Shown here: piece after piece, positions 10 to 40,444 of the stretch
Layout: the number at the start of each line of letters is the position of its first letter
Numbering within the stretch: position 1 is the first letter of the stretch
Assembly (NCBI GenBank): GCA_039801885.1
Contig: JBDRVN010000004.1
Span: 1-49,593 of the forward strand
Source of the DNA: a candidate division WOR-3 bacterium
GTDB taxonomy: Bacteria > Hydrothermota > Tepidihabitantia > Tepidihabitantales > DTDR01
Direction: 5' to 3'
Length of the DNA: 49,593 bases
Made by a program: the position numbers and the translations under genes
Notes under the pieces: model-generated
Databases searched by the model: none
What the model saw: the letters and a program-made list of their open reading frames with translations, nothing else
Told to the model about the DNA's origin: nothing

Positions 10-705
10 ATGGATAATATAAGAAAGGTTATTTCTAAATTTGAGTATGAGAATACAAAAAAAGAGTTTTGTCGTCATTTAGCAATTTTATACCGGCAAA
101 TGAGAAGGAAAGAGAGGATTGTATTTAGGCATATTGGCTATAGGAATATGGCAGAGGATGGTTTCTGTTATGAGTTTTACAAAAACATTGCCTTTTGGAC
201 AGAAGTTCACAGAAACACAATTCCAAAATATATAAATTTCTTTATTGAAAATAAATTATTAGAGAAAAAGGTATTAAAAGCAAAATATCGTTATCGTCGT
301 GGTTTAGTTTTAACAAAATTAGGTTTATGTTTTTATATTTTTATTAACAAACTTAATGAATATTTATATAGTAAATTTAAAGAAGATAATAATTATAGAG
401 AGATAAATTTCTTTTCCTTTATTTATAATTTTATATTAAATATATTCTATCTCTTTAATAATATATTAGGTAGTATGCACAATGAGATGCACAAGGCAGA
501 GAACACAAGTAGTGATGGAAGTAGTAATGGAGAAGTTTTAGGTATCAATTTAGAGATAAAAGAGGTAAAAAAGCCTCCTGGTGGAGAGCAAAAGGACCTA
601 AAAGAGTTAAAAAGGCAGCAATTTATAAAAATGTTACAGGCGGGCTATTTGCTTCCGGAAAACATAATGGATGAATATGATTTATGGCAATTTATAAAAA
701 AATAA
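10..705 (+). CDS. Hypothetical protein with N-terminal winged-HTH-like region (replication-initiator-like)
   Basis: 231-aa ORF. Segment YKNIAFWTEVHRNTIPKYINFFIENKLLEK has HTH plus wing spacing, followed by a low-complexity linker. The true start could lie at the window edge. Confidence 0.45.
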   Translation: MDNIRKVISKFEYENTKKEFCRHLAILYRQMRRKERIVFRHIGYRNMAEDGFCYEFYKNIAFWTEVHRNTIPKYINFFIENKLLEKKVLKAKYRYRRGLVLTKLGLCFYIFINKLNEYLYSKFKEDNNYREINFFSFIYNFILNIFYLFNNILGSMHNEMHKAENTSSDGSSNGEVLGINLEIKEVKKPPGGEQKDLKELKRQQFIKMLQAGYLLPENIMDEYDLWQFIKK

Positions 706-890: not shown

Positions 891-931
891 TTTTCCAAAT
901 GAGATTGATATTATTAAGTATAAATAACTTT

Positions 932-1064
932 GCTACGGAGAGAAGAAAGAGAAAGGTTCAGGTATCTTATTTGAAAATAACCTCCTTATTTTCGCCCAGA
1001 CTAATAGACCCTCCTTTAATTTGCCTGAATCTTACCACCCCACTTTCTTCTCTCCGTAGTTTTT
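932..1064 (+). ncRNA. Putative structured ncRNA with two CCUCC (anti-SD) hairpin loops; family unknown
   Basis: Perfect 17-bp stem 933-949/1043-1059; 12-bp stem 953-964/1022-1033 with two G-U pairs; 8-bp hairpin 973-980/986-993 with CCTCC loop; weaker hairpin 1005-1018 with CCCTCC loop; T5 tail 1060-1064. Confidence 0.65.
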
Positions 1065-2089
1065 CAATAAATTTCTATTAATTCTTCTTCTTTAATTATA
1101 AAATTTTTTTCGGGAAGGAAATTTTTTATTACCCAAAGGTTGGTTTTTAAATGATTGGTGATTTTATTAGTTTTATAACGACAAGAAGTATTGCTTAATA
1201 TAATAAAAATTGGCAATTGATCGGCAAGATGGTAATCCACAACACCTTTGCTATTATAATATTCTAAAAATTCCTTTACTGCTTCTTCGGCTACTTTTTC
1301 GGCAGGTTTACCAATCTCGCCCAGCGAAGAAAATCCGGCGACAATATTTTCAAATTGTGCCAAAATAAAAGTATAAGTACCTGGTGAAACACTTTCAACC
1401 TCTTCAATAAAGATTTCCGGATTAAATTTTTTTAAAAATTGATAGGCTTGGTTTACTTGTCTTTGGGCAATACTTTTATCCAATTTTCCTACTTTAGAAA
1501 TAATTTTTATTTTCTCTAATTTTCCTCTTTCTAAAAATTCGATAGTATTTTGCTCTCTTTTTTTGAAAGGTTCTACTTCTAAAATTACTTTTCCGCCACC
1601 GACCGGATAAAAACCATATCTTTCAATTTTTGCTTTGCAGAAAAAAGAAAACCTTTTTATAGTGGGAATAAGCACATCTTCTAAATAATCAAATATCGGA
1701 CTAAAAGGCACATGAGTTCCTCCTTCTAAAGTTATTTTAGAAGGTTTAGCAGCAAAGAATAAAACAGGTAAAATTGCCTGAATAACCAAAGTTATTGCAC
1801 CAGCACTTCTTTTTTCTTCGGCAACATTGAAATAATATTCACCACCAATAATATTTTTCGGAATAAATTTTAAAGATAGAGAATAAAGTTTGTTATTTTC
1901 TACAGTTGCTTCGCATATTTTAGCAGTGGCATTTATTCCGGTTAAGTGTTGGGGTAAAATACCTGGTTTTTTTCTTCCCTTTCTAATATTATTAATGAAA
2001 AAAGGTTTTTTAAGACAGGCTGATAAACTCAAAGATGTTCTTAAAATCTGGCCACCACCTTCACCATAGGAACCATCAATATTAATCAT
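1064..2089 (-). CDS. rtcA: RNA 3'-terminal phosphate cyclase
   Basis: [16 protein letters not shown]-terminus, [25 protein letters not shown] and the conserved catalytic His in ITNHLKTN. Confidence 0.95.
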
Positions 2090-2773: not shown

Positions 2774-3043
2774 ATGGGGTTAACAAAAGAAAGAAAGAAA
2801 GAAGTAATTGAAAAGTTTAAAATTCATAATAAAGATACTGGTTCGCCAGAAGTCCAAATAGCTATTTTAACCGAAAGGATAAAACTCTTAACCGAACATC
2901 TACAAAAGCATAAAAAAGATAAACACTCGCGAAGAGGATTGATAAAATTAGTTAATCAAAGGCGGCGTCATCTTAATTATTTAATGAAATACCACAAAGA
3001 ACGTTATTTAAAAATAATTGAGAAACTTGGTTTGAAAGGATAA
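2774..3043 (+). CDS. rpsO: 30S ribosomal protein S15
   Basis: [27 protein letters not shown]. Confidence 0.98.
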
Positions 3044-5133
3044 TGAGTCATACCGAAGCAAAGATTGGGGATCGGATTTTATCCATCGAAACCGGTAGTC
3101 TGGCACGGCAGGCTGATGGAAGTGTTTTAATTCGTTATGGTGATACCATTGTTCTTACCACGGTTACTTATAAAAAAGAAAAAAATATTACTTTTCAAGA
3201 TTTTTTACCTTTGACTGTTGATTATCGGGAATTAGCCTATGCTGCCGGAAAAATTCCTGGTGGTTTTTTCAAAAGAGAAGGGAAACCAAGAGATAAAGAG
3301 ATTTTAGTTTCCCGTTTAATTGATCGTTCAATAAGGCCACTTTTCCCCAAGGGTTTTAATCAAGATATTCAAATTATTAGCTTTCTTCTTTCTTTTGACC
3401 AAGAAAATGAAGGTGATATTTTAGGAATTATTGGTGCTTCCGCTTGTTTACTTTTGTCGGAAATACCTTTCTCTCAACCGATTGCTGCTGTTAGAATTGG
3501 AAAAATTGATAATAAATATATAATCAACCCAACAATCAAAGAATTAGAAGTTTCGACTCTTGATTTAGTTGTCAGTGCTACTAAAGAGACGCCAGTGATG
3601 TTAGAGGGCGATGGCAGAGAGGTTCAACCTCAAGAAATTATTGAAGCCATTGAAATTGCTATGGAAGAAATAAGAAAAATTATTGAAGCCGAGGAAAGAC
3701 TAACTATTGGTATTACTAAATTAGAGATTCCTGAAAAATTGGTTCCGGAAGATTTTGAGAAGGAAGTAAAGGAATTGATAGAAGAAAAGGTAATACAGGC
3801 TTACCAAATTCTTGACAGAAAAGAGAGGCAAGAAAATTTAAGAAAAATCCGTGAAGAAACTTTTAATTTATTAAAAGAAAAATATCCTGATTGTGAAGGT
3901 CAAATTCAATATATAATAGAAGAGATTGCGCGAAAATATATGCGAGAATTAATTATTAACAAGCAAAAAAGAATAGACGGGAGAACACCTGATGAGATAC
4001 GTCCTCTTTCCTGCGCGGTTTCCATATTACCCAGAACCCATGGTTCGGCACTTTTTACCCGTGGACAAACCCAATGTTTGGCAGTGGTTACTTTGGGAAC
4101 AAAAAGTGACGAACAGATTGTTGATGATTTAGAAGGTGAAGGAACAAAACGTTTTATGCTTCATTACAATTTCCCTCCTTTTTCTACTGGTGAAATTAGA
4201 TCTTTGCGAGCACCAACAAGAAGAGAAATTGGACACGGTTTTTTAGCGGAGCGGGCTTTTAAACATCTTTTACCCAGTGAAGAGGAGTTCCCCTACACTA
4301 TAAGGGTTGTTTCGGACATTTTAGAATCTAATGGTTCTTCCTCAATGGCAACAGTTTGTGGAGCAACCTTATCGTTAATGGATGCGGGAGTACCGTTAAA
4401 AAAAGCAGTAGCCGGAATAGCAATGGGATTAGTAAAAGAGAATGATGATTATGTCATTTTAACTGATATTACCGGAACCGAGGACCACTATGGAGATATG
4501 GATTTTAAAATTGCTGGTACTAAAGATGGAATTACTGCTGTCCAATTGGATTTAAAAATTCAAGGAGTGTCCTTAAAAATTTTAAGAGAAACAATTGATA
4601 AGGCGCAACTAGCCCATAAAAAGATATTAGAGTTAATGGCAAAGTCAATTGACCAACCCCGAAAGTGCCTTTCTTCTTTTGCTCCTCGGGTATTTGCTTT
4701 TCAAATCCCTAAAGATAAGATTGGCGCGGTAATCGGTACCGGAGGCAAAGTTATAAGAAAAATAATTGATGAAACTACCACTGAGATTTTTATTGAAGAC
4801 GATGGGAAAATAATAATTTCCGGACCTAATGAAGAGGCGATTGAAAAAGCAAAGTCAAGAATTTTAGCAATTGTTGAAGATATTGAAGTTGGAAAAGTAT
4901 ATTTAGGAGAGGTTAAAAAAATAGCTCCTTTTGGTGTTTTCATAGAAATTGCGCCCGGAAAAGAAGGACTCTGCCATATCTCTCAATGGGCTGATTATCG
5001 AGTAAAAAATTTAGCAAATGAAGTTAAAGTTGGTGATAAAATTTTGGTTCGGGTGATTGCCATTGATGAAATGGGAAGGATTCAACTATCAAGAAAAACA
5101 GTGGGAAAGGATGATACAAAAAGAAAAAGTTAA
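3043..5133 (+). CDS. pnp: Polyribonucleotide nucleotidyltransferase
   Basis: DFLPLTVDY, RREIGHG, GDMDFKIAG, KH (IGTGGK) and S1 domains; follows rpsO. Confidence 0.98.
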   Translation: MSHTEAKIGDRILSIETGSLARQADGSVLIRYGDTIVLTTVTYKKEKNITFQDFLPLTVDYRELAYAAGKIPGGFFKREGKPRDKEILVSRLIDRSIRPLFPKGFNQDIQIISFLLSFDQENEGDILGIIGASACLLLSEIPFSQPIAAVRIGKIDNKYIINPTIKELEVSTLDLVVSATKETPVMLEGDGREVQPQEIIEAIEIAMEEIRKIIEAEERLTIGITKLEIPEKLVPEDFEKEVKELIEEKVIQAYQILDRKERQENLRKIREETFNLLKEKYPDCEGQIQYIIEEIARKYMRELIINKQKRIDGRTPDEIRPLSCAVSILPRTHGSALFTRGQTQCLAVVTLGTKSDEQIVDDLEGEGTKRFMLHYNFPPFSTGEIRSLRAPTRREIGHGFLAERAFKHLLPSEEEFPYTIRVVSDILESNGSSSMATVCGATLSLMDAGVPLKKAVAGIAMGLVKENDDYVILTDITGTEDHYGDMDFKIAGTKDGITAVQLDLKIQGVSLKILRETIDKAQLAHKKILELMAKSIDQPRKCLSSFAPRVFAFQIPKDKIGAVIGTGGKVIRKIIDETTTEIFIEDDGKIIISGPNEEAIEKAKSRILAIVEDIEVGKVYLGEVKKIAPFGVFIEIAPGKEGLCHISQWADYRVKNLANEVKVGDKILVRVIAIDEMGRIQLSRKTVGKDDTKRKS

Positions 5134-9881: not shown

Positions 9882-10473
9882 TTTTAATTTTTTTATCAGA
9901 AGGGAAAAATTTGGTATTAAGAAGATATTTTTGGGAGAAAGATTTATTAATAAATTTTATTTCTTCTTCCAAAAAAGGACATTTTTTACAGTCGGCATAG
10001 CTTTCCTTTAAAATAAGATTATCCCAATAAGGGTCGCCAAGAAAAATCAAATTTAAAAAGTTAACAGGATTCTCTTTTGGGAAAATTAAACTCTCCACCG
10101 GTACTTCTTTTTCATTAACTATTATCAATACAGAAATTTTCCTTGTTAATTTTTTATAAACATATAAACTTTCCCATAAGACCCAATCTAAAAAAGCCAA
10201 AGCATTTTGTAAAGCAGTAAGCGGGATATTACTTAAGATACTTGCCTTTTCGTTTAACCATTCGTAACCTTTTAAATTTATTAAAAATTGGACTTCTCCT
10301 TTATTTTTATTTACTTCTCCAGGAAATATTATTATTTTATTTATACTGTCAACTATTAGATTTTTCTCTTCTAAATGAAAAAACGGCTTTTTACTCTTTT
10401 TAGTAAAAAGAAAAGTCAATAAGAAAAGAAAAACGAAAACTAAAAGAGAAATTATCCGAAAATTGATTTTCAT
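9850..10473 (-). CDS. Hypothetical membrane-anchored protein (possibly YdjY-like)
   Basis: N-terminal TM, IIIFPGEVNK, C-terminal CKKCP; coupled to the upstream sugar transferase. Confidence 0.4.
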   Translation of the reverse strand: MKINFRIISLLVFVFLFLLTFLFTKKSKKPFFHLEEKNLIVDSINKIIIFPGEVNKNKGEVQFLINLKGYEWLNEKASILSNIPLTALQNALAFLDWVLWESLYVYKKLTRKISVLIIVNEKEVPVESLIFPKENPVNFLNLIFLGDPYWDNLILKESYADCKKCPFLEEEIKFINKSFSQKYLLNTKFFPSDKKIKIKLILPDGDK

Positions 10474-11771
10474 TAGTAAGGATTTTCGTATATAAGTATT
10501 GCCTTAAAGGTTAACAACAAAATTGAAAAATCTAACCAGAGGGACCAATTTTTTACATAATATTCGTCAAGCAGCAATCTTTCTTTTAATGTTAAATTAC
10601 CCCTGCCAGAAATTTGCCACAATCCGGTTAACCCTGGTTTTACTTTTGATATAATTGGCAAGTAATTTTCAATTAACTCTTTTTCTTCTAAAAGATAAGG
10701 TCGAGGACCAACCAAAGCCATCTCTCCTTTTAATACATTTATCAATTGAGGTAATTCATCTAAGCTAAACCTTCTTAAAAACTTGCCAAAGGGGGTGACT
10801 AATTGTTCACTTTTGGGAATTTTTAAATTTTTTTGCCATTCGTTAAAATATTCCTCTTTAAAAATTTCTTGATACTTCTGGGCTTCTATTTTCATTGTAC
10901 GAAATTTATAAATAGTAAAAACCTTGCCTTTTAACCCAATTCTTTTTTGTTTATAGAAAATCGGACCCGGCGAAGTTAATTTTATTAAAAAAGAAAATAA
11001 CAAAAATAAAGGTAAAGAAATTATAAAAATAATTAAAGATAAAAAATATTCTAAGGCAGTTTTAAGAAAAAGGTTGAAAGGTTTTAGAAGATTATATTTG
11101 GGCTTCAAGAACAAATAACGACCTATTTTTTCAATTTCAACATTTTGCGTTTGTAAAAGATTTAAATCAGCGACAATAAAAATTTCCGAAAAAGTTGATA
11201 TTAATTTTTCTTTAAAATATTTATCAGTGACAATTAAAATATCGGGCTGTTCTTTATTTCCAACTAATTGATAACCTAAGTATTGTTGACGGACAATTTC
11301 TTCTTTTAACTCATCGATTGATTCTTTTTCGCCGATGATTTTTATTTTTTTAATAAACAAGCCGATTTTTATCAAAACCAATTTAGTTAACCAACGAGCG
11401 AGAGGAAGTAAAATTAAAGAAAAAATAAAAGCTAACAAAATAACAATTCGGGAGAAACTATAAATTTGAGTAAGGTAAGCAACAAAAATAATAATTATTG
11501 TTCCTAACAAAAGTCCTTTCCATAATTTTTGAAGTTCATCGGCAAAACTAAATCTTTTGCTGTACAAATCATTAAAGAAAAATATTAAAAGATAGATAAA
11601 CAAAAAATAAAAACGATAATAAAAAACATTGAAAGACAAGGGAAAAGATAATTGAGTAAAAATCTTAGGAAGAACAACAGCTCTTATTATGTAACTCAAA
11701 AGATAAGAAAAGGATAAACTCAAAAAATCAGAAAGAGAAATAATAATACCTGTAAGCAAATTTTTTTTCAC
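10473..11771 (-). CDS. Polyprenyl-phosphate sugar phosphotransferase (WbaP/WcaJ family)
   Basis: N-terminal TM helices, FTIYKFRTM, RRFSLDELPQLINVLKGEMALVGPRP, KPGLTGLWQISGR; GTG start. Confidence 0.92.
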   Translation of the reverse strand: MKKNLLTGIIISLSDFLSLSFSYLLSYIIRAVVLPKIFTQLSFPLSFNVFYYRFYFLFIYLLIFFFNDLYSKRFSFADELQKLWKGLLLGTIIIIFVAYLTQIYSFSRIVILLAFIFSLILLPLARWLTKLVLIKIGLFIKKIKIIGEKESIDELKEEIVRQQYLGYQLVGNKEQPDILIVTDKYFKEKLISTFSEIFIVADLNLLQTQNVEIEKIGRYLFLKPKYNLLKPFNLFLKTALEYFLSLIIFIISLPLFLLFSFLIKLTSPGPIFYKQKRIGLKGKVFTIYKFRTMKIEAQKYQEIFKEEYFNEWQKNLKIPKSEQLVTPFGKFLRRFSLDELPQLINVLKGEMALVGPRPYLLEEKELIENYLPIISKVKPGLTGLWQISGRGNLTLKERLLLDEYYVKNWSLWLDFSILLLTFKAILIYENPY

Positions 11772-13118: not shown

Positions 13119-13679
13119 TTATTTCACTCTTTCAATATATCTTTTTGTTTCGGTACTAACTCTTACGATATCATTTATTTTAATAAATTGCGGAACCATG
13201 ATTTCTAATCCATTTTCTAATTTAGCAGTTTTGTAAGCAGCATCAGTTTCACTTTTTACTCCAGAACCAGTTTCTATCACTCTTAGATCAACGGTTTTCG
13301 GCATAATAAAATCAATCGGTTTTCCCTCATAAAATTCTACTTTAATTTTAAATCCCTCTTTTAAGAAAATAGCAAAATCACCGATGATTTTTTTAGATAA
13401 GGGAAATTGTTCGTAAGTTTCTGGATGCATAAAATAGAAATTTTCACCATCATTATAGATATATTCCATTTCAAAGACATCAAGATGGATATTTTGTAAT
13501 TTTTCATCGGGACTGAATCTTTTTTCAGTAAAGGAACCTGTTTGAAGATTTTTTAATTTTAAGTGAACTAGACTACCAAATTTTGCTGTTCCTGCTTTAT
13601 ATTCACCGGTTATAACCTTATAGAATTCTCCTGCTATTTTTAAAACCATCCCCTCTTTTACTTCACTAGCCAGAATCAT
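13119..13679 (-). CDS. efp: Elongation factor P family protein with atypical tip loop
   Basis: YIYNDGENFYFMHPETYEQ, KLENGLEIMVPQFI; loop reads AGTAKFG instead of PGKG; strong SD. Confidence 0.9.
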   Translation of the reverse strand: MILASEVKEGMVLKIAGEFYKVITGEYKAGTAKFGSLVHLKLKNLQTGSFTEKRFSPDEKLQNIHLDVFEMEYIYNDGENFYFMHPETYEQFPLSKKIIGDFAIFLKEGFKIKVEFYEGKPIDFIMPKTVDLRVIETGSGVKSETDAAYKTAKLENGLEIMVPQFIKINDIVRVSTETKRYIERVK

Positions 13680-14590: not shown

Positions 14591-17500
14591 TTAATTAATT
14601 TTTATTGTAAATACCTTAGAAACTCCTGGTTGAGGATTAGTTACTCCTAAAAGAACATCAGCATTTTCTAAAGTTAATCGGTTATGAGTAATAATTATTA
14701 TTTGTGTCTCTTGGGCGAGTTCTTTTAGAAATTTAATAAATCTTTTGATATTTATATCATCTAAAGGAGCATCCACTTCGTCTAAAAATAAAAAGGGAGT
14801 CTTTTTTATTCGATAAAAAGAAAAAAGTAAAGAGAGTGCCAATAATGCTTTCTCACCATCAGAAAGATGTTCTAATCGTTTAGGATTTTTCCCTTTTGGT
14901 TTAGCAGTAATGACAATTTGAGATTCAAAGGGATTTTCTGGTTCAGTAAGTATAATATCCGCTTCACCTTCGGTAAAAATTTCTACAAAAGTTTTCTTAA
15001 ATTCTTCTCTTACATTTTGGAAAATATTATGAAAAATTTCTTTTGCTTTTTTTTCTAATTCTTCAACTGATTTTTTCAGATTGTTTATCCCTTGCAAGAT
15101 ATCTTTTTTTTGTCCTAAAAGTTTTAATAATTCATTCTTTTCATAATTATAATCTTCAGCAGCTAAATAATTGACATTTCCTATCTCTATAATTTTTTTT
15201 CTAATAATTTCTATCTCTTTTTCATAGTCAATAGTAGTTAAACAACTAAATTCTTGATAAGAAAATTCTTTTGTAAATTCTTCTCCTAAATTATTCATAT
15301 TTATTTCTAATTCCTTTTCAAGACTGGCTAACTCAATTTGGTTATTAGCGATCTTATCTTTTATCAACAGAATTTCTTTTTGGTATTCGTTGATTTTTTT
15401 GTCTTTTTCTTGGATTTCACCAAGGAAAATATTAATCATTTTTTCAGGTAGCTGCTTTTCGATAATCGCGATTTCCTCTTTTAATTCGGTAATTCTTTTA
15501 AATAATTTGTTTTTCTCTTTTTCGCTTTCTAAAAATTCTTGGTTAGCACTTTCTATTTTTTCGGTTATAGTTGCTAACTCCTTTTTAATTTTTTCTTCTT
15601 CAATTTCTTTTTCATATATTTTCTGTTCTTTTTGATAATAATTTTCTTTTAATCTGAAAAGTTTATTAATAAGAATTTGCATTTCTTCATTTTTTGATTT
15701 AAATTCCTGTCGTTGATTACTTAAATTTTCTTCTTTATTTTTAAGTTGTTCGCGTAGAAAAATTTCTTTCTCTTTCAGTTTATCAATTTTCTCTTCAAGC
15801 TCTTTTCTCTTATTTAAAAAAGAATTTAACTCCTCTATCCTTTCTTCTACTTCCTTTTCTGTTTGGAAAATAATTTCTTGCTTTTTACTATAAATTTCTG
15901 ATAAATTGTTTAAATGATAAATTTCAGCATAAATTTTTAATAATTCCTGAGGGGGAACTTCCCAATCTTTAACTTTTTGTAAATTAACAACTCCTTCCTT
16001 TGATATAATTTCACCTTTTTTAGTAATATAAGTGAATTGGGGATTTTTTAAATAAAAATAATAGGCTTCAGTTAAATTATTTACTAAATAACACTCAGCA
16101 ATTTTTCCCTTAATAAAAGGTGGACAATTTTCCTTAAATTTTATAATATTCTTCAAAGGCAAAGGTTCTTTTTTTTCTAAGTCTATTGGATTTTCGTGAG
16201 TAATATTAAAAGAAGACAGAATAAAACCATCGTTAATATAGTTAAGAAGATTATGAAAATTGTTAGAAAATAAAAAAGATAAATTCCTTATTACATAAAA
16301 GTTTAAATATCTTTTTAAAAGTTGATTGACCAAACTTTCGTAGCCGGGTTCAACCTCTAAAAAATCTTTTACCATTCCTAAAAAATCTTCACCTAATTGA
16401 GTTCTTACCAATTTCAATTTTTCTTCTTTTTCTTTTTTAGTAAAAGAAAGATATTTTTCTTTTAATTGAGCAATAAGTTGCTCTTTTTTTGTTATTTTTT
16501 CTTCTATTTCTCTAAGTTCTTTTTCAATTTCCTCTTTTTTTCTTTTCTTTTCTTTTATCTCCTCTTCAATTTTATTTATTTCGTGATTTATTTTAGTTAA
16601 AAAGCTTTCTTCCTTTTTATTTTCTTCAAAATTGTTTTTCAAAGTTTCCCAAAGATTTTTGATTTCCTTTTCCAACTCAGTAATTATTATTTCCTTCTCG
16701 CTAATTTCTTTTTGCTGTTCTTTAATTTTAGTTTCTAAAGTTTCTTTTTCTAAATTAATTTTAACCAAATCTTCTTTCAATAAGTTAGTTTCTTCGGCTA
16801 ATTTTTGAAGAGAAAAAGCTAAACTTTCTTTTTGTTTTTTCTTCTCGGCAAATTCTTTTAACAAAAAATTATTTTTCTCTTCATAAATAATTTTTTCCCT
16901 TTCTAAAGAATTCATTTCCTTTAATAATCCCTGATAGGTGTGATAAACCATTTCTTGTTTATTTTTAAGTTCTTCTATTTGGTGTTGAGTTTTATTAATT
17001 TCCTCAACCAAAATTGCTATTTCCTTTTCCTTTTCTGATATCTTTTCCGAATATTCCGAAATTTCTTTTTTTAATTTTTCTCTTTTCTCTTCTAAATTCT
17101 TAATTTCTTTAATAAGTAACTTCCTTTGGTACTCTTTCTCCTTTTCTTTTAACTGAAGATATTCGTTATATACTTTCACCTGTCTTTGGAGGTTGCGAAC
17201 AATTCTTTGTTTTTCCCTAATAATTACTTCCAAATTTTCTAATTCTTGATTTAAATTTATTAATTTCCTTTCTATTTCTCTTCGATTTTCAAAATATTCT
17301 TTTAAATTTGCTGCTTCAAAAAATAGCTCCTTAGCTTCTCCTTGAATAATCCTGCGCATCTGGGTAATATCAAATATTGAATAGACATAAGAGCCAACTT
17401 TACTAAACAAATCTTCAATATCTTTCAAACGGCAAGGTTGGCGATTAATGAAATATTCACTTTCTCCCGAACGATAATAACATCTTTTTATTTCAATCTC

Positions 17501-17785
17501 ATTACTATATTCGGGCCAGTTTCCATCATTTTCAATAATTAATTTCACCTCGCAATAATTTAATGGCGGAACTTCTTTGGTTCCGCCAAAAATTAACTCT
17601 TCAATTTTACTGCAACGTAGCAAGGAAAGAGTTTGCTCTCCTAATACCCAACGGAAAGCATCGAAAATATTTGTCTTTCCACAACCATTTGGTCCTAAAA
17701 TTGCCGTTATCCCTTGAGAAAATAAGATACGAGTTTTCTCCGGAAAAGATTTGAAACCGAAGATATCTAATTCTTTAATTCTCAT
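14591..17785 (-). CDS. smc: Chromosome segregation protein SMC
   Basis: FGFKSF, Walker A GPNGCGKTN, coiled coils around a hinge, signature LSDGE, Walker B FLDEVDAPLD; next to ftsY. Confidence 0.93.
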   Translation of the reverse strand: MRIKELDIFGFKSFPEKTRILFSQGITAILGPNGCGKTNIFDAFRWVLGEQTLSLLRCSKIEELIFGGTKEVPPLNYCEVKLIIENDGNWPEYSNEIEIKRCYYRSGESEYFINRQPCRLKDIEDLFSKVGSYVYSIFDITQMRRIIQGEAKELFFEAANLKEYFENRREIERKLINLNQELENLEVIIREKQRIVRNLQRQVKVYNEYLQLKEKEKEYQRKLLIKEIKNLEEKREKLKKEISEYSEKISEKEKEIAILVEEINKTQHQIEELKNKQEMVYHTYQGLLKEMNSLEREKIIYEEKNNFLLKEFAEKKKQKESLAFSLQKLAEETNLLKEDLVKINLEKETLETKIKEQQKEISEKEIIITELEKEIKNLWETLKNNFEENKKEESFLTKINHEINKIEEEIKEKKRKKEEIEKELREIEEKITKKEQLIAQLKEKYLSFTKKEKEEKLKLVRTQLGEDFLGMVKDFLEVEPGYESLVNQLLKRYLNFYVIRNLSFLFSNNFHNLLNYINDGFILSSFNITHENPIDLEKKEPLPLKNIIKFKENCPPFIKGKIAECYLVNNLTEAYYFYLKNPQFTYITKKGEIISKEGVVNLQKVKDWEVPPQELLKIYAEIYHLNNLSEIYSKKQEIIFQTEKEVEERIEELNSFLNKRKELEEKIDKLKEKEIFLREQLKNKEENLSNQRQEFKSKNEEMQILINKLFRLKENYYQKEQKIYEKEIEEEKIKKELATITEKIESANQEFLESEKEKNKLFKRITELKEEIAIIEKQLPEKMINIFLGEIQEKDKKINEYQKEILLIKDKIANNQIELASLEKELEINMNNLGEEFTKEFSYQEFSCLTTIDYEKEIEIIRKKIIEIGNVNYLAAEDYNYEKNELLKLLGQKKDILQGINNLKKSVEELEKKAKEIFHNIFQNVREEFKKTFVEIFTEGEADIILTEPENPFESQIVITAKPKGKNPKRLEHLSDGEKALLALSLLFSFYRIKKTPFLFLDEVDAPLDDINIKRFIKFLKELAQETQIIIITHNRLTLENADVLLGVTNPQPGVSKVFTIKIN

Positions 17786-25854: not shown

Positions 25855-27873
25855 ATGAAACTCTTTTTGATAATTTTATTTTTTTCTTTAGTAATAAAGG
25901 GATATCCAATATTTAATACGGATAGTGCTTATTTTCATCTTAAAGAAGAGATGGATAAATATCATAAAACTTTTGATGTCTATACTGATATGGATGCTGG
26001 CGGAAATCATTATCTACCAACTGAAATAATGAATAGCGAAGCAATTTCTTTAACCCAGACTTGTACATTAGGAATGTATTCGGGAATTACCTGTATAAAA
26101 GCAATTTATTTTGCTCAGCAAGCAGAATGGGCAGGTGTTGGTTGGTATGATTCTCTTGGTTATGATTTGACCGGTGCTGAAACCTGCTCTTTTTGGGCAA
26201 AAGGTGAAAATGGCGGAGAAGTTATTAGGTTTGAAGTTGGCGGACCTTATGATTCTATTTACCGTTCAATAACCGTTATTCTTTCCGATACTTGGCAAAA
26301 ATATTACATAGATTTGCGTGGTGGTAATTTAAGAAATTTAAAAAGAGGTTTCTGCTTTGTGGCGGAAAGAACAAATAACCCTTCTGGTTGCACTTTCTAT
26401 CTTGATGATATAAAATTTGATTTGGCGAGACTTGATTCATTAAGGCTTATCCACACTTATTTACCCTTATTTTATCGTCACGACCAAAAATGGGCATTAA
26501 ACCAAGCATATACTTATCCGAATGTCTTAGCAATGCTTGCCTTTATGAAAAGAAGAAATCCTGACGACATTCGTCGGGCAAGAATTATTGGCGATGCCTT
26601 TGTTTTTGCTCAAAATTATGACCGATTTTATCAAGATGGCCGCTTAAGAAATGCTTACCGAACAGGCGATATTAAAGACCATCATACTGGAAAGGCTTTA
26701 CTTCCGGGATGGTGGGATGATTCTTTATCTTTATGGTGTGAGGATAAATATCAAGTTGGGACCTATACCGGCGAAATGGCTTGGTTAATATTATCTTGGC
26801 TTATTTATGATTCAATTACGCAGGAAAGGCGATATCTATCAAATGCTATCCGTTTGGGAAATTGGATTGCTGATAGTTGTTATGATTCCACAGGTATTCC
26901 TGGTTATACCGGCGGTTTTGAAGGTTTTGAGCAACCACCGGAAAGCCTTAAAAAATTAAGATGGAAATCAACCGAACATAATCTTGACCTATATGTTGCC
27001 TTTACTTGGTTATTTAGGCTTACTCAGAACCCAATTTGGCAAATAAGAGGAGAAAGGGCATTAAATTTTGTAAAAGCAATGTGGGATTCTATTTCTGGTT
27101 ATTTTTGGTGCGGCACAAAAGAAGATGGAACAATAGATACCCTTTTAGTTTTAGATGCCCAAACCTGGGGGTTAATTGCTACCTGTGATAGTAATCGCTA
27201 CCGACAGGCTCTCGTTTCTGCCGAGAACAACTGTCGCCGAGAAACATTAGGATATAAAGGATTTTGTTTTAGCGAAAGGGGAGATGGAATATGGTGGGAA
27301 GGAACAGGTCAAATGATTTGTGCCTATCAATTTATTGGTCAATATGAAAAAACTGATACCTTTCTTAATCAATTAAGAATCTGGCAGCGATTATCTCCTT
27401 ACGGTAATAATAAAGGAATTGTTGCCTGTCATCCAGAAAGTTCTTATACGGGAATTAATCGATTTTGGGGACCTTGGTATTACTTTCCAAGATTAGATAT
27501 TGGTGCCACTTCTTGGTATATCTTTGCCGAAAACCGCTATAACCCATTTTGGAACGACACATTTCCGCTTCCTCCTTCGGCAATCAATAAAGAAGATAAA
27601 TTACCTCCAAAAATAAAAACCAAAAACTTTTTTACTCCCTTTGGTTCAAAATTTCTTATCTGCTTACCCGAAAGAGAGATAATTAAAATAAAAATTTATA
27701 GTATTAAAGGTGATTTGGTTGCTATCTTACTTGACAAAAATAAAAAAGATACCAATTTTATCCTTTGGAACGGAACGGATAAAAAAGGTAAAAAATTACC
27801 TTCTGGTATCTATTTTATATCAATAATTAGTGATAAATTAAAATTAACAGAAAAAATTATTATAAAAAATTAA
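25855..27873 (+). CDS. Secreted protein: CBM-like domain, glycosidase-like alpha/alpha barrel and FlgD-Ig/T9SS-like tail
   Basis: Signal-like N-terminus; YDLTGAETCSFWAKGENGGE...WQKYYIDL CBM-like segment; WKSTEHNLD and WWEGTGQ motifs; tail WNGTDKKGKKLPSGIYF. Confidence 0.55.
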   Translation: MKLFLIILFFSLVIKGYPIFNTDSAYFHLKEEMDKYHKTFDVYTDMDAGGNHYLPTEIMNSEAISLTQTCTLGMYSGITCIKAIYFAQQAEWAGVGWYDSLGYDLTGAETCSFWAKGENGGEVIRFEVGGPYDSIYRSITVILSDTWQKYYIDLRGGNLRNLKRGFCFVAERTNNPSGCTFYLDDIKFDLARLDSLRLIHTYLPLFYRHDQKWALNQAYTYPNVLAMLAFMKRRNPDDIRRARIIGDAFVFAQNYDRFYQDGRLRNAYRTGDIKDHHTGKALLPGWWDDSLSLWCEDKYQVGTYTGEMAWLILSWLIYDSITQERRYLSNAIRLGNWIADSCYDSTGIPGYTGGFEGFEQPPESLKKLRWKSTEHNLDLYVAFTWLFRLTQNPIWQIRGERALNFVKAMWDSISGYFWCGTKEDGTIDTLLVLDAQTWGLIATCDSNRYRQALVSAENNCRRETLGYKGFCFSERGDGIWWEGTGQMICAYQFIGQYEKTDTFLNQLRIWQRLSPYGNNKGIVACHPESSYTGINRFWGPWYYFPRLDIGATSWYIFAENRYNPFWNDTFPLPPSAINKEDKLPPKIKTKNFFTPFGSKFLICLPEREIIKIKIYSIKGDLVAILLDKNKKDTNFILWNGTDKKGKKLPSGIYFISIISDKLKLTEKIIIKN

Positions 27874-28254: not shown

Positions 28255-28260
28255 AAGGTG

Positions 28261-29133
28261 ATGTTAAGAAAATTTATAGGAAAGTTATTAAAAGAAATGA
28301 GGAAAGAAAGGGGATATAGTTTAAAAGAGATTGCCAAATATTGTAGAAAAAGTGTAAGTGATTTATCAAGATTAGAAAAGGGCAAGATTAAAAACCCTTC
28401 CATATTTTTAATTTTAAATTATTTAAAGACAATAAATATTCATTATGGAGAATTTTTCAGCAAAATCCAAGGATATGAAATAGAAAACTTATTAAAAATG
28501 AAAGAGAAAGCGAAAATAGTGAATGGGATGGGATTGGTAAGAAAAGAGATTCGTTATAGTTTAGGATTAAAGTTTCAGAAAAAACCTTTTATTAATTACC
28601 CCGAAGAGTTAGAATGGAAGATAAAAAATTATTTGCTTCCTTTTGGTTACGAACCTTCAATAGTTAGAAAATATATCAAGTTTAGTGAAAAGGTATTTTA
28701 TGGTCTTTTAGATGGAAAAGATGAAAATTATTTTCAAGAGATAAATAAAAAGGCAGAAGAAGAAAATTTAGATAAACTTCTTTTAGCAAAAATAGCAAAA
28801 ATTACTTACGAGGCTTACAAAAGGGCATTAAAAAGAATAAATCAAGTAAAACCAATAACTGATAAAAAGATGAAAAGAATGGCTGAAGGCTATTTAAAAT
28901 ATTGGAGTAAGTGGATAAGATTAGAATATTTGATAAAAAAATATTTATGTGAAAAAGGGGTGCCCTTGCCTTTACATTTTTATTATCTAAACAAGGCAAA
29001 GAAATATCACAAACTATTAAAGAAAAACAGATTAGAGAAGATAAAAGAAATAGATGAAAAGGCAATAAAAGAAGGTTTAGAAAAAGAGATATTAGAGAAA
29101 ATAAAAGAGATTATAAAGGAAAGAGATAAATAA
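28261..29133 (+). CDS. XRE-family HTH protein with a duplicated C-terminal helical domain
   Basis: LKEMRKERGYSLKEIAKYCRKSVSDLSRLEKG XRE HTH; internal repeat aa 118-183 / 222-286 (track numbering from GTG 28258). Confidence 0.8.
   Translation: MLRKFIGKLLKEMRKERGYSLKEIAKYCRKSVSDLSRLEKGKIKNPSIFLILNYLKTINIHYGEFFSKIQGYEIENLLKMKEKAKIVNGMGLVRKEIRYSLGLKFQKKPFINYPEELEWKIKNYLLPFGYEPSIVRKYIKFSEKVFYGLLDGKDENYFQEINKKAEEENLDKLLLAKIAKITYEAYKRALKRINQVKPITDKKMKRMAEGYLKYWSKWIRLEYLIKKYLCEKGVPLPLHFYYLNKAKKYHKLLKKNRLEKIKEIDEKAIKEGLEKEILEKIKEIIKERDK
29015..29117 (+). repeat. Direct repeat copy 1 (3' end of the HTH gene)
   Basis: 103 bp; 93/103 identical to 30659-30761 by manual ungapped alignment. Confidence 0.9.
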
Positions 29134-29176: not shown

Positions 29177-30610
29177 ATGAAGAAAATTTTAGAATCGGTA
29201 ATTTTATTATTAATTTTAGTATCTTTATTTTCAGTGGCTTTTGCTCAATGGGAGCCGGATGTACGACTAACATGGAATGATAGTTCTTCGACCACAAGTT
29301 TTAATAATGTCCGTAACATTGCTGCTGGATCCAATGGAACTTTACATGTAGTGTGGGTGGATTGTCGAACAGGAGTTAGTCAAATCTATTATAAACGTTC
29401 AACCGATCGAGGAACGACTTGGTCTCCCGATACCAATCTGACCGATGCCAGTGGATTGAAAGCAGATCCTAACCTCGCAGTAGTTGGTGAAACGCTCCAT
29501 CTTGTCTGGGAGGACCACCGTTGGGGTTATCCCGGAGCAATTATGTATCGAAAGTCAACAGATAATGGCATAACTTGGTTACCAGAACAATGTATCAATG
29601 CCAATAACTGGAACTCTCGTAATCCTGCGGTTGCTGCCGAGGGAAGTATAGTTCATGTTGCTTGGGCTAGTGATTCAGTAGGTAGAGAAATCTATTACAT
29701 TCGCTCAACCGACAATGGCGTAACCTGGACTGACCGCCGTCGGTTGACATTTGATATGCAGGAATCTTGGTATCCCTCAATTGCCGCTTCGGGTCAGTTT
29801 GTGCATCTTGCTTGGCGAGACTGGCGTGATCACAGTTTTGAAATATATTATCTCCGTTCTACTGACCGAGGCGCAACATGGGATAGCATACCCATACGCA
29901 TATCTGGTGATCTAACAACTGGTTCTTATAATCCCAGTTTATGTGTTTCAGATTCATACGTGCATATTGTATGGTTTGACACTCGTCACACTCCTTTTGA
30001 ATTGTACTATCGCCATTCCTCAAATAACGGAAGAACTTGGGATATGCCCGAAATGCGACTTACCGAAGACTCAAGTGGCTCTTACAATCCGACAATCTGT
30101 GCTGATGGTCCGAATATTCATGTAGTCTGGGAAGCGTTACTTGGCACATCTGACATCTATCATAAAATGTCCACCAACTATGGAATAAGTTGGGGACCAG
30201 AGACCCGACTTACTAATGACCAGTTTTACTCGGTTTTCCCATCTGCGGCATTACTTGATTCCGGTATCCATGTTGTCTGGACTGATTTCCGAGATAATGA
30301 ATACGGCGAAATCTACTACAAAAGAAATCTGAGAGGTAATCAGGTAGCGATTGCTAAGTCTTCCGAACCAATGTTTAATTATCCACACTTATCCGCCACC
30401 ATTGTCGGTGGTGTTCTATTTTTACCAAGGATATCAAACGTCAAGGAGAATACTTCTTGTTTTCTAATTAATATCACTGGCCAAAAAGTTAAAGAACTTT
30501 TACCTGGTCCAAACGATATACGACAATTAACTTCAGGAATCTATTTCATCTTTCAGCAGAATAGAAAAGGTAATTGGCAGTTGGAAAAGAAAATAGTCAT
30601 TCAGCACTAA
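29177..30610 (+). CDS. Secreted BNR/Asp-box repeat (sialidase-like propeller) protein with T9SS-like C-terminal domain
   Basis: Signal peptide ending AFA-Q; six SxDxGxTW-type boxes (STDRGTTW, STDNGITW, STDNGVTW, STDRGATW, SSNNGRTW, STNYGISW); tail NITGQKVKEL...SGIYF. Confidence 0.8.
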   Translation: MKKILESVILLLILVSLFSVAFAQWEPDVRLTWNDSSSTTSFNNVRNIAAGSNGTLHVVWVDCRTGVSQIYYKRSTDRGTTWSPDTNLTDASGLKADPNLAVVGETLHLVWEDHRWGYPGAIMYRKSTDNGITWLPEQCINANNWNSRNPAVAAEGSIVHVAWASDSVGREIYYIRSTDNGVTWTDRRRLTFDMQESWYPSIAASGQFVHLAWRDWRDHSFEIYYLRSTDRGATWDSIPIRISGDLTTGSYNPSLCVSDSYVHIVWFDTRHTPFELYYRHSSNNGRTWDMPEMRLTEDSSGSYNPTICADGPNIHVVWEALLGTSDIYHKMSTNYGISWGPETRLTNDQFYSVFPSAALLDSGIHVVWTDFRDNEYGEIYYKRNLRGNQVAIAKSSEPMFNYPHLSATIVGGVLFLPRISNVKENTSCFLINITGQKVKELLPGPNDIRQLTSGIYFIFQQNRKGNWQLEKKIVIQH

Positions 30611-30658: not shown

Positions 30659-30761
30659 TATTAAAGAAAAACAGATTAGAGAAGATAAAGGAGACAGATG
30701 AAAAGGCAATAAAAGAAGGCTTAAAGAAAGAGATATTAGACGGAATAAAAGGGATTATAAA
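30659..30761 (+). repeat. Direct repeat copy 2: orphan 3' fragment of the HTH gene family
   Basis: Encodes LLKKNRLEKIKETDEKAIKEGLKKEILDGIKGII, matching the C-terminus of the HTH protein; no 5' part. Confidence 0.85.
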
Positions 30762-30777
30762 AGATGCGACAAAAAAT

Positions 30778-31481
30778 TTATTTAATTAACTCCTTTAATT
30801 TATCAAAATAAGGATAATTTAATTCTTGGAGAAGAAAAAGAAAATACTCAATATTTTCTCCTCTTTCCTTTGCTTTTTTAATCTTTTCTGCAAGCAATTC
30901 CGGTTCTAAGATATTTAATAATTCATCAATTTTCTGATAACCTATTTCTTTTAAAGCCACCAATAATGAATACCTGCCTATTTTCTAAATTTTTTATAAT
31001 TTCACAAACCTCTTCTCTTTCAACAATATAACCTTTCTCAAAATCAATCCATAAAGGACCTTGCCAACGAAAGAAATGAGGCTCATTATATTTTTCGTCA
31101 CCCCTTTTAAGATATTTTTCTATTTTTATTAATCCCAATCTTTTTAATTTTGAAGCAATAAATTCCTTTTCCATAATGGATGCTCTCTTTTTTAAATCCA
31201 TAATAATAAAAAATAAAAATGCCATTAATATTATTAAAATAATGCTATATATCCAATTTGAAAAAAATTTCCCAATTTCTATCCTCCAAAAAGATAGTAT
31301 AAACATTATTATACTTACTATCATACCTATTATACCTACAACAATAGTCCAGTAGGTACTTTTTTCTATTTTTTTTCTTATAAGATAGGTAATTTCCTAA
31401 GACTATCAAAAGGACGATAAGGAAAAATATAGAAATACCTGTAGGTATTAGATTAATAATAAAAACTATTAAATTACCCAT
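30778..31481 (-). pseudogene. Frameshifted, internally deleted membrane-anchored protein gene, probable P-loop/STAND NTPase remnant
   Basis: Three overlapping minus-strand frames (31245-31484, 30926-31324, 30778-30963). An A8 run (31369-31376) breaks a TM-encoding frame. IVEREEV..IIKNLENRQVFIIGG stops where a Walker A would begin. Confidence 0.6.
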
Positions 31482-32666: not shown

Positions 32667-32996
32667 ATGAAGGAATTTGAAGAGTTAAAGGGAGAAAAGG
32701 TAAGAATTAAGTTGAAGAGTTATGATTATCGGATATTGGATCAATCAACAAAGCAAATTGTTGATGTTATTAAACAATTGGGTGGTAAAGTTTCCGGACC
32801 AATACCTTTGCCAACGAAACGTTCGCTTTTTACTGTTTTACGTTCGACTTTTATTGATAAAAAATCAAGGGAACAGTTTGAATTACGGATTCATAAAAGA
32901 TTGATTGAGATTGATAATGCGACACCGGATATGATTAATGCCTTAATTCGTTTAGAAGTGCCAGCTGGTGTTGATGTGGAGATTAAAATAACTTAA
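32667..32996 (+). CDS. rpsJ: 30S ribosomal protein S10
   Basis: [29 protein letters not shown]. Confidence 0.98.
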
Positions 32997-32997
32997 T

Positions 32998-33633
32998 ATG
33001 ATGGGATTATTAGGTAAGAAATTAAAAATGACTCAACTATTTGATGAGAAGGGAAAAGTAATTCCGTGCACGATTGTGAGACTTGGTCCTTGTTATGTCG
33101 TGCAAAAGAAAGTGAAAGAGAAAGATAATTATTGTGCTATCCAATTAGGGTTTGAGAAGAAGAAAAAGGGAAACAAACCAATTGCTGGTCATTTTAAAAA
33201 AGCAAATTTACCGGTTTTAAGATATCTAAAGGAATTTAAAGTGGATAATCCTGATGGGTTTGAATTAGGAAAAGAATTAAAAATTAAAGATGTTTTTAAA
33301 GAAGGCGATTTAGTAGATGTAACTGGCTGGACAAAAGGCAGAGGTTTTGCTGGTGGTATGAAAAGATGGGGATGGAAAGGCGGACCAGCTTCTCACGGCT
33401 CCCAATCCCATCGTCGAATAGGTTCTTTGGGAAGTGGAACCAGTCCGGGAAGACCTTGGAAAGGAAGAACTTTACCAGGACATTATGGTTGTGAAAAGGT
33501 AACTATCAAAAATTTAAAGATTATAAAAATTGATGAAGAAAATCATTTGGCTTATATCTCCGGTGCTATTCCAGGCTATTCTAATAGTTTAGTAATAGTT
33601 AAAAAAGCAAAAAGTGCTATTAAAAAATTATGA
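32998..33633 (+). CDS. rplC: 50S ribosomal protein L3
   Basis: GKKLKMTQ, TKGRGFAG, SHGS, PGHYG. Confidence 0.98.
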   Translation: MMGLLGKKLKMTQLFDEKGKVIPCTIVRLGPCYVVQKKVKEKDNYCAIQLGFEKKKKGNKPIAGHFKKANLPVLRYLKEFKVDNPDGFELGKELKIKDVFKEGDLVDVTGWTKGRGFAGGMKRWGWKGGPASHGSQSHRRIGSLGSGTSPGRPWKGRTLPGHYGCEKVTIKNLKIIKIDEENHLAYISGAIPGYSNSLVIVKKAKSAIKKL

Positions 33634-34265
33634 AAGCCGAACTACTATCAATTAATGGTGGGTTAAAAGGTGAGATTGAAATCCCAGAAGATATATTTGC
33701 TTGCGAAATAAATAAAGCATTAATTTGGGAGGCGGTCACTAATTATTTAAATAATCAAAGGCAAGGAACTGCTTCAACAAAGACAAGGGGAGAAGTAAGA
33801 GGTGGTGGAAGAAAACCTTGGGCGCAGAAACATACCGGTCGGGCAAGACACGGTTCTATCCGTTCGCCAATTTGGCGAAAAGGCGGAGTTGTTTTTGGTC
33901 CGAAACCAAGAGACTATTACTATTCTTTACCAAGAAAGAAAAAAAGGATTGCTTTACTTTCTGCCCTTTCTGCTCGTTATCAAGATAAAGAAATATTATT
34001 TTTAGAAGATTTTAATTTAAACGAACCGAAGACAAAGTTGATGTATAATATTTTGAAGAATTTAAAAATGAACGACAAAAAAGTTTTATTGGTAGTGAAA
34101 AATATGGAGAAAAATATTAAATTATCTTCTCGTAATATTCCTAATTTGACATTGATGCCGGCAAATAGTTTGAATGCTTATGAAGTTTTAGTGAATGATA
34201 AAATTATTTTTACCGAAAGTGGGTTAGAAAGTTTGAAAGAATTATGTTTGACCCAAGAAAAATAA
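33630..34265 (+). CDS. rplD: 50S ribosomal protein L4
   Basis: [33 protein letters not shown]. Confidence 0.98.
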
Positions 34266-34528
34266 TAATTAGACCAATTTTAAGCGAAAAGGCTTTAAGA
34301 TTAAGAGAATATAATCAATATATTTTTGAAGTAGCAAAAGATGCTAATAAGATTGATATTAAAAAAGCAGTAGAAGAATTATTTAAAGTAAAGGTAGAAA
34401 AGGTGAGGACACTTAATGTGCGTGGTAAACCAAAGAGGATGGGAATTTTTGAAGGAAGAACATCTTCCTGGAAAAAAGCAATTGTTACTTTAAAAGAAGG
34501 TGAAAGAATTGAAGGCTTGGAGAGATAA
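34244..34528 (+). CDS. rplW: 50S ribosomal protein L23
   Basis: [29 protein letters not shown]. Confidence 0.97.
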
Positions 34529-34530
34529 TT

Positions 34531-35361
34531 ATGGCAATTAAAAAGTATCGTCCAGTTACACCAGCAAGAAGATTTTATACGGTTGTTAAATTAGAAGGAG
34601 TTTCTAAAAGGGAACCTTATAAACCTTTATTGGTAATTAAAAAGAGTAAAGCCGGAAGAAACAATTTAGGTAGGATTACTGCCAAATATCGTGGCGGTGG
34701 TGAAAAGAAATATTACCGGATTATTGATTTTAAAAGAGATAAATATGATATACCAGCAAAAGTAGTTTCTATTGAATATGACCCAAATCGGACTGCTTGG
34801 ATTGCTTTAGTTTGCTATAAAGATGGTGAATATCGGTATATTATTGCTCCTGATGGTTTACAAATTGGTGATACTATTATCTCAACAAAAGATAAAGAGA
34901 TACCAATAAAGATTGGGAATGCTATGCCTTTAAGACTTATTCCGGTTGGTGTAGAAATTCATAATTTACAACTTTATCCCAATTATCCATCTTATATTGC
35001 TCGGGCTGCTGGAACTTCCTGTCAAATTTTAGCAAAAGAAGAAGAATACGCTATTGTTAAATTACCATCCGGAGAGATAAGAAAGTTTTATTTAGATTGT
35101 ATGGCAACTATTGGAAAGGTTTCTAAACCAGAACATAAAGATATGATTATTGGTAAGGCAGGTAGAAAAAGACATATGGGAAGAAGACCAAGAACAAGAG
35201 CAGTGGCAATGAACCCAATTGACCATCCAATGGGCGGTGGCGAAGGACGATCTCACGGCGGAAGGCATCCTACTTCCGAAACCGGTATATTAGCAAAAGG
35301 TAAAAAAACAAGAAAGAAAGAAAAGGCTTCTGATAAATTTATTATTCAGAAAAGAAAATAA
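34531..35361 (+). CDS. rplB: 50S ribosomal protein L2
   Basis: [30 protein letters not shown]. Confidence 0.98.
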
Positions 35362-35363
35362 TT

Positions 35364-35657
35364 ATGGGAAGAAGCTCTAAAAAAGGACCTTATATTGATC
35401 AAAAATTATATAAAAGAATAACAGAAATGAATGAAAAAGGAATAAAAAGGGTGATAAAGACTTATGCCCGTGCTTGCGTAATACCTCCGGAATTTGTTGG
35501 TCATACGATCGCTGTTCATAATGGAATAAAATTTATTCCAGTATATATTACTGAAAGAATGGTTGGTCATCGTTTGGGAGAGTTTGCGCCTACCAGAACA
35601 TTTAGAGCCCATGCTGGTCAAAGAAAAGAGAAAGGCAAAGAAAAGGAGAAAGAATAA
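35364..35657 (+). CDS. rpsS: 30S ribosomal protein S19
   Basis: [24 protein letters not shown]. Confidence 0.98.
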
Positions 35658-35660
35658 TTT

Positions 35661-36655: not shown

Positions 36656-36664
36656 GAGGAAATT

Positions 36665-38789: not shown

Positions 38790-38790
38790 A

Positions 38791-38976: not shown

Positions 38977-38989
38977 ATTAGGAGGAAAA

Positions 38990-40437: not shown

Positions 40438-40444
40438 TAAACCT

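Follow-up and report, generated by a model that had tools for sequence, protein, structure and literature searches.

A conserved small RNA gene convergent to rtcA in candidate division WOR-3 bacteria, with an anti-Shine-Dalgarno-like motif in a C-rich loop

The 6C RNA of Actinobacteria has several accessible C-rich motifs that pair with G-rich or Shine-Dalgarno (SD) regions. RoxS/RsaE, known in Firmicutes, likewise contains C-rich regions, which base-pair with many mRNAs at G-rich or SD sequences (PMC8216469). In the cuckoo or alpha-r14 group of small RNAs, which includes CcsR and NfeR1 of Alphaproteobacteria, an ultraconserved anti-SD motif, CCUCCUCCC, is kept unpaired on stems that are highly variable, and mRNAs are silenced at the ribosome-binding site (PMC4615179, PMC10746234). 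PmaR of Agrobacterium tumefaciens has been described as 'spoon-like', with a long stem, a single-stranded loop and several C-rich regions through which it acts (PMC6234868). The Y RNAs are ~80-130 nt in length, and their terminal regions pair into a long stem that is combined with a large loop (PMC4201824); in Salmonella their genes share an RNA-repair operon with rtcBA (PMC4201824, PMC7790460).

In the current analysis we have identified a small RNA gene in uncultivated bacteria of candidate division WOR-3, and it is well supported as a real, conserved and structured gene that is read from the plus strand and has its own promoter. To our knowledge this phylum is known only from metagenomes. 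The RNA is previously uncatalogued, and a sub-lineage of WOR-3 is its only carrier known here. A full-text literature search on WOR-3 together with noncoding RNA found no paper on a regulatory RNA in this division. The gene is located in a stretch of 49.6 kb (49,593 nucleotides, G+C ~30%), which is referred to as the window.

The window RNA is predicted to fold into a long rod that closes a large loop. The basal helix P1 is a perfect stem of 17 bp between a purine-only 5' arm (933-949) and a pyrimidine-only 3' arm (1043-1059), with G932·U1060 beneath it. It is followed by an internal loop with AGA (950-952) on its 5' side opposite ACCACCCCA (1034-1042), which is the third C-rich motif (motif 3) and has this form and place in the window's lineage only. 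Helix P2 comprises 12 bp between 953-964 and 1022-1033, including G956·U1030 and U963·G1023, and encloses an apical loop of 57 nt (965-1021) that is G-poor, C-rich and essentially unstructured across the family. In the window this loop can form a hairpin GAAAATAA-CCTCC-TTATTTTC at 973-993 and a weak one, TAGA-CCCTCC-TTTA, at 1005-1018. The basal stem, internal loop, second stem and apical hairpins had all been proposed in an earlier sequence-only reading of this DNA, and each of them has been recovered at its place. The minimum free energy on the plus strand is -46.3 kcal/mol as compared to -22.0 ± 3.2 for 200 dinucleotide shuffles (z = -7.6, no shuffle as good), and the fold of the minus strand has a z of -4.6.

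Relatives were gathered via RtcA from genomes and assemblies, and from one metagenome scan with a motif-plus-stem pattern. The RNA element is represented by 12 distinct versions in two deep WOR-3 lineages. The window's lineage has eight versions (the window, L001, L002, L003, L005, L006, L008 and L019), with RtcA proteins 79-91% identical, and the second, distant lineage has four (L009, L021, L022 and L023), with RtcA ~55% identical to that of the window. The collection of homologues beside rtcA, suggested in the sequence-only reading, has shown that in all 12 homologues the element lies shortly beyond the stop codon of rtcA and is read from the other strand, convergent to the 3' end of that gene. 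The rod begins 4-36 nt past that stop codon in 11 homologues and 158 nt past it in L022. The only neighbour common to all of them is rtcA: the window's lineage has pnp-rpsO and a lipoprotein gene on one side and assorted genes on the other, and in the second lineage the element and rtcA are flanked by a methyltransferase gene and a gltD-like gene, one to each side. The rpsO-pnp pair, two genes from rtcA, is at 2774-5133 in the window and is found at this distance in the window's lineage only. The element was not found at five other rtcA loci of WOR-3 (L011-L014 and L024) and therefore does not always accompany rtcA.

The metagenome scan gave four true matches, all at the same site near rtcA, and two chance matches (L016, L020); the true ones belong to lineages already known or very close to them, and the family is not widened by them. 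Viral contigs scanned with a 16-mer of the distant lineage gave 66 matches, which are taken as chance because none of them is recognised by the covariance model. These searches bear on the reading of the element as a DNA-level palindrome or miniature mobile element (MITE), which its nature as a long inverted repeat in an intergenic position would allow. However, a single copy is present in the 49.6-kb window, as seen by a search with up to 3 mismatches, a repeat finder and a covariance model, all the true metagenome matches lie at the rtcA-proximal site, the viral contig scan found no viral copies, and there are no target-site duplications. The G·U asymmetry and the loop conservation described below also point to an RNA. 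A mobile element, which the sequence-only reading had named as an outcome that would undo its proposal, is thus extremely improbable, the element being single-copy and syntenic beside rtcA.

The gene has a sigma-70-type promoter on the plus strand at 863-890, made up of a -35 box TTGACT (863-868), a 16-nt spacer and a TG-extended -10 box TATAAT (885-890), with 11 of 12 consensus positions matched in addition to the TG extension. Transcription would start at ~897-899. The resulting A/U-rich 5' leader of ~35 nt (897-932) has a conserved AUG at 899 and is kept within the window's lineage; in the distant lineage the leader is much shorter, with 10-31 nt from the end of the -10 box to the first paired base. 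The rod is followed by a T5 run at 1060-1064 (+), a likely terminator tail, which overlaps the rtcA stop codon (1064-1066, minus strand) by one base. The promoter and the T5 run had both been noticed in the letters before any comparison was made, and both are present. These predicted ends give the RNA a length of about 165 nt in the window; in the distant lineage it would be about 125-150 nt. On the plus strand a T-run of 3-7 follows the rod in most members of the window's lineage; after the rod none is seen on either strand in L009, L021 and L022, and a weak one is seen in L023. The neighbouring rtcA (1064-2089, minus strand) is assigned to the Pfam families RTC and RTC_insert, its product is named 'RNA 3'-terminal phosphate cyclase [candidate division WOR-3 bacterium]' in the source, and its nearest RtcA relatives are also named candidate division WOR-3. 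RtcA is an RNA-repair enzyme whose bacterial substrates are still poorly defined.

An open reading frame of 231 residues (10-705, plus strand) is situated directly upstream of the promoter; it has no Pfam match and adjoins the RNA in no related genome, the upstream genes being variable. In L009, L021 and L023 (at ~4235, 3765 and 3736) the gltD-like gene is read in the same direction as the RNA, and its stop codon is immediately followed by the -35 box (...UGGUAG-TTGAC); the RNA could therefore also arise there as a transcript derived from a 3' UTR.

The conserved AUG in the leader opens a frame of 60 codons (899-1081, plus strand), which raises the question of a leaderless small-protein gene or an RNA of dual function. 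The AUG is located 8 nt after the -10 box, a distance of the leaderless type, the frame is open in five of the eight close relatives, and one indel in it is a multiple of three. Against this, the frame is shifted by indels of -2, +2, +1 and -1 nt in L001, L002 and L005, the variable columns are distributed as 10, 17 and 14 over the first, second and third codon positions with no excess at the third, and the members of the distant lineage share neither a start nor a stop for the frame. Purine-only and pyrimidine-only arms together with a G-poor loop would suppress stop codons in any case. The frameshifts and the absent codon periodicity largely refute a small-protein gene, which we regard as very improbable; the frame is probably a by-product of strand-biased composition.

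A rod of ~25-32 pairs closing a loop of 50-60 nt is the shape shared by every homologue. Since MAFFT misaligned the 3' arm across the two lineages, covariation has been assessed on an alignment curated by hand (A5, with gaps written as N). Standard pairs make up 94.3% of its 350 cells and double changes are seen in 18 of the 30 rod pairs, counts which lean towards the structure as A5 was fitted to it by hand; the double changes are plain by eye despite this fitting. They comprise compensatory double changes in 12 of the 17 pairs of helix 1, where 97% of cells are paired, and double changes in 6 of the 13 pairs of helix 2. The covariation score is 0.414 as against 0.178 ± 0.017 in shuffled data (0 of 500 as high), and sliding the 3' partners by 1-3 columns lowers it to 0.10 or less. 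A covariance model trained on the window's lineage alone detects the four distant homologues on the expected strand with E-values of 3e-7 to 8e-5. The extent of the changes is exemplified by the basal helix, which reads CGGAGAGAAGAAAG/CUUUCUUCUCUCCG in the window and GCGGAGC-CGGAGA/UCUCCG-GCUCCGC in L021, with only GGAG/CUCC kept.

This GGAG (937-940) and its partner CUCC are invariant throughout the family. The bias of the P1 arms, purine-rich on the 5' side and pyrimidine-rich on the 3' side, is kept in the distant lineage, where GGAG/CUCC occurs twice. With this bias and the invariant GGAG/CUCC near its base, the rod itself resembles SD:anti-SD duplexes.

The plus strand is well supported as the transcribed strand by two independent lines of comparative evidence, in agreement with the preference expressed in the sequence-only reading. 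The first is the excess of G·U or U·G cells (17) over A·C or C·A cells (2) when the rod is read on the plus strand; U963·G1023, for instance, is U·G in all eight close relatives and is replaced by U-A or C-G in the distant lineage. The second is the promoter, as a -35/-10 pair with a spacer of exactly 16 nt precedes the RNA in 12 of 12 homologues, with different spacer sequences and different upstream genes. The family -35 box is TTGAC[ATC] (TTGATT in one homologue) and the -10 box is TA[TA]A[AC]T. The rod alone is more stable on the plus strand in 9 of the 12. A CsrA-type reading of the minus strand, on which the loops would carry GGAGG motifs, has been set aside, both the promoter and the G·U asymmetry being in favour of the plus strand. 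Identity of the RNA to that of six close relatives is 73-86% (~85% in five), a minimum value since the loop alignments contain no indels, and the four-fold degenerate sites of rtcA in the same genomes are 41-67% identical. Judged from these alignments, the RNA is under purifying selection.

The loop is characterised by its composition, with 2-7% G and 26-42% C among the 12 homologues, as compared to ~30% G+C in the window. Motif 1, AACCUCCUU (979-987, plus strand), is an anti-SD-like seed that is invariant in all 12, and its CCUCC is predicted to be unpaired with a probability of 0.88-1.00. The overlapping ACCTCCTTA (980-988), which had been recognised as the canonical 16S rRNA tail, is identical to the final 9 nt of E. 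coli 16S rRNA (rrsH). Motif 2, CCCUCC (1009-1014, plus strand), has an unpaired probability of 0.89-1.00 and is represented at the homologous place in the distant lineage by CCCACC. The third C-rich motif, which in the window's lineage is the ACCACCCCA of the internal loop, appears in the distant lineage inside the apical loop as ACCCCCCA, CCCACC or CCAACC. Motifs 2 and 3 of CCCACC type do not pair with GGAGG, and only one anti-SD seed is therefore conserved. The apical hairpins are not conserved either, their arms being unpaired in L001, L003 and the distant lineage. The sequence-only reading had described two anti-SD loops presented on hairpins; the first motif stands, invariant and unpaired throughout, but the hairpins are not kept and the second CCUCC is confined to the window's lineage. 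From the folds and alignments, the conserved design is one long rod that closes an unstructured, G-poor and C-rich loop of 50-60 nt.

On the reading that we prefer, to which a probability of roughly 0.45 is given, this RNA is a trans-acting base-pairing sRNA whose anti-SD-like seed would pair with the SD regions of mRNAs. The rod of ~28-32 bp would act as the handle of a 'spoon', holding open a loop that is almost free of G and for that reason cannot fold on itself. The loop would display the invariant AACCUCCUU and one or two further C-rich motifs, and these accessible seeds would pair antisense with G-rich mRNA sequences, mainly SD regions of the AAAGGAGG type. Such pairing would keep the 30S subunit from binding and would probably lead to decay of the mRNA. 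With a rod holding open a C-rich loop that carries an invariant anti-SD copy, the RNA most likely silences mRNAs at their ribosome-binding sites, and it is from these features that we infer its action in trans, its pairing with SD regions and the nature of its targets. Several points count against this proposal, among them that a perfect anti-SD seed would be promiscuous, that only one such seed is conserved between the lineages and that a conserved linkage with rtcA is not expected of a generic trans-acting sRNA.

Plausible targets are present in the window, where SD-like matches precede 13-19 of the 55 open reading frames, typically AAAAAGGAGG (a match to ACCUCCUUA), with which motif 2 (CCCUCCUUU) would pair over 8-9 bp; SD-led starts include those of efp (13119-13679, minus strand) and of 44900-45304. 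A crude duplex scan of the 55 start regions in the window gave five below the 5% quantile of the background and none below the 1% quantile. It barely beats random windows, and as start regions are not separated from them no target is named. Many other genes of the window look leaderless, as they lack an SD and have a TATAAT-like -10 box only 4-9 nt upstream of the start codon; examples are 14591-17785 (minus), 25855-27873 (plus), 28258-29133 (plus), 30926-31324 (minus), 40409-41065 (plus) and 10473-11771 (minus). The impression of many leaderless-looking mRNAs, gained at first sight of the sequence, is thus borne out, SD-led genes being a minority. An ORF scan of the window identified no gene for an RNA chaperone, CsrA or Ro60; the lack of a chaperone gene there and the outcome of the duplex scan also count against the base-pairing reading.

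The RNA most plausibly works like the sRNAs with C-rich or anti-SD seeds (cuckoo/NfeR1, RoxS/RsaE and PmaR), and is a member of none of these families. An Rfam 15 scan of the whole window at gathering level has a tRNA at 44713-44784 as its sole match. When scanned by E-value, the region 700-1300 gave only generic matches to plant miRNA-precursor models, which score any long hairpin; the matches reached 24.8 and 24.4 bits where the cut-offs are 64 and 75. No match was obtained for L009, L021 or L023 at E <= 1. These Rfam scans of the window, the element and three distant homologues agree with the sequence-only reading, in which the RNA could not be matched to 6S, SRP, tmRNA, RNase P or Y RNA.

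The WOR-3 RNA shares with cuckoo and alpha-r14 RNAs an invariant, unpaired anti-SD-like motif on stems that diverge by compensatory changes. The cuckoo RNAs, however, consist of 2-4 adjacent short hairpins with CCUCCUCCC in each loop, and the WOR-3 RNA of one rod and one large loop. CCUCCUCCC is absent from the WOR-3 RNA, in which the motif is AACCUCCUU, present once and accompanied by other C-rich motifs. The two also occur in different phyla, and the WOR-3 RNA is without an Rfam match. PmaR resembles the WOR-3 RNA in architecture only, no relation of sequence being expected; its seed has been described as not anti-SD, and it mostly activates its targets, unlike the action proposed here. RoxS/RsaE and 6C have 2-3 short hairpins with C-rich motifs in loops or linkers, which is a different architecture, and are without a linkage to rtcA. 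Membership of RsaE/RoxS has been rejected, since there is no Rfam match and the two-hairpin design is absent. 6S RNA has also been considered and rejected, as no helix beyond the rod is conserved and no Rfam 6S match is found at E <= 10.

If the gene encodes merely another base-pairing sRNA of the C-rich kind, a regulatory design known elsewhere is thereby extended to a new phylum, and the gene merits an Rfam entry. The well-supported structure, strand and promoter, together with a seed identical to the anti-SD of E. coli 16S rRNA, provide a handle on post-transcriptional control in WOR-3. The RNA is worth following up as these genomes mix SD-led and leaderless-type genes and as it stays linked to rtcA, and the gene would gain interest if one of the readings that involve rtcA or mimicry of 16S rRNA were true.

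The linkage with rtcA and the shape of the RNA recall the Y RNAs, and YrlA in particular, in size, in the long terminal stem with a large loop and in the neighbourhood of an rtc gene. A regular-expression search for the Ro60-binding motif GNCGAAN0-1G found it in none of the 12 homologues. A tRNA-like module is also not seen, the only tRNA found in the window by ARAGORN being a tRNA-Gln at 44712-44785 (minus strand) and the loop of the RNA being G-poor and unstructured. No TROVE/Ro60 (rsr) gene is present among the called genes of the fetched flanks or the scanned ORFs of the window. Identity with Y RNA or YrlA has been rejected on the lack of this motif, of a tRNA-like module, of an rsr neighbour and of an Rfam match.

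A wider reading of the same features is that the RNA binds a protein through the loop with ACCUCCUU, as a sponge, a scaffold or a mimic of the 16S 3' tail, or that it partners RtcA in RNA repair as Y RNAs do with Ro60. Candidate partners would be KH-domain factors such as Era, platform ribosomal proteins or an RNase. The identity of ACCUCCUU(A/U) with the 3' tail of E. coli 16S rRNA, the invariance of all codon-sized positions of the motif and the persistence of the rtcA linkage through two contexts of synteny would all suit such a role, as would the resemblance of a long terminal stem and large loop in ~125 nt to the general description of Y RNAs (PMC4201824). A further similarity is seen in L009 (4069-4193, minus strand), which besides ACCUCCUUA reads GAAGU-GG-CGU-CUC-AGGUAACCGU in its 5' arm and loop and so resembles GAAGUCGUAACAAGGUAACCGU, the stretch of E. 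coli 16S rRNA that immediately precedes helix 45; the local score of 21 was reached by none of 500 shuffles. This likeness is a lead, but it is found in only one of the four lineages compared, the others sharing only ACCUCCUU, and no descent from rRNA is therefore claimed. The GAUCA that precedes CCUCC in 16S rRNA is absent from the RNA, no candidate binding protein is encoded nearby, and the Ro60 motif, tRNA-like module, Rfam Y RNA match and TROVE/Ro60 gene are lacking as described above. On balance we consider a protein-binding role unlikely.

A further reading, that the RNA is a functional mimic of the 16S 3' tail coupled to RNA repair by RtcA, appears quite improbable. It might then serve as a decoy or sensor for factors or ribotoxins acting on the anti-SD end of 16S rRNA, or as a general SD competitor that would shift translation between SD-led and leaderless mRNAs, both classes being common in the genome; the second of these had been suggested in the sequence-only reading. 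Either version, if true, would explain both the invariance of ACCUCCUU and the linkage to rtcA.

The position of the rod also suggests an action in cis on rtcA, with the rod as a terminator or stabiliser of the rtcA 3' end, or with the plus transcript as a convergent antisense regulator, and the loop without a role in trans. This is consistent with the short distance of the rod from the rtcA stop codon in nearly all homologues, with rtcA as the only conserved neighbour and with the good fold of the minus strand. The scan for terminators, which does not cover loops as large as that of the rod, detected no other terminator for rtcA, and a read-through transcript of rtcA would be perfectly complementary to the sRNA. 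The loop motifs, however, are conserved beyond the needs of a terminator, the promoter is conserved on the strand opposite to rtcA, the G·U to A·C counts favour the plus strand, the rtcA-sense strand has no U-run after the rod, and the element is missing from five further rtcA loci of WOR-3. A purely cis-acting element thus seems unlikely.

The linkage with rtcA may be explained in three ways. The rod probably serves in addition as the end of the convergent rtcA transcript, and this double use could be part of the reason why the two genes stay together. Such economy may explain the linkage, as the scan showed no other terminator for rtcA; against it, the rtcA-sense strand has no U-run behind the rod, and in the distant lineage both strands lack one (a weak one is seen in L023). 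Antisense coupling through the complementary read-through of rtcA is possible, and so is a functional tie between a mimic of the 16S tail and the repair of RNA ends.

The window also encodes a ribosomal protein operon of the S10 type (32667-39385). A direct repeat of 106 nt has been identified at 29015-29120 and 30659-30764, two copies that are 90% identical, and also at 28706-28811. The 3' part of a gene with an HTH_3 domain (28258-29133) is duplicated after the gene with BNR repeats (29177-30610).
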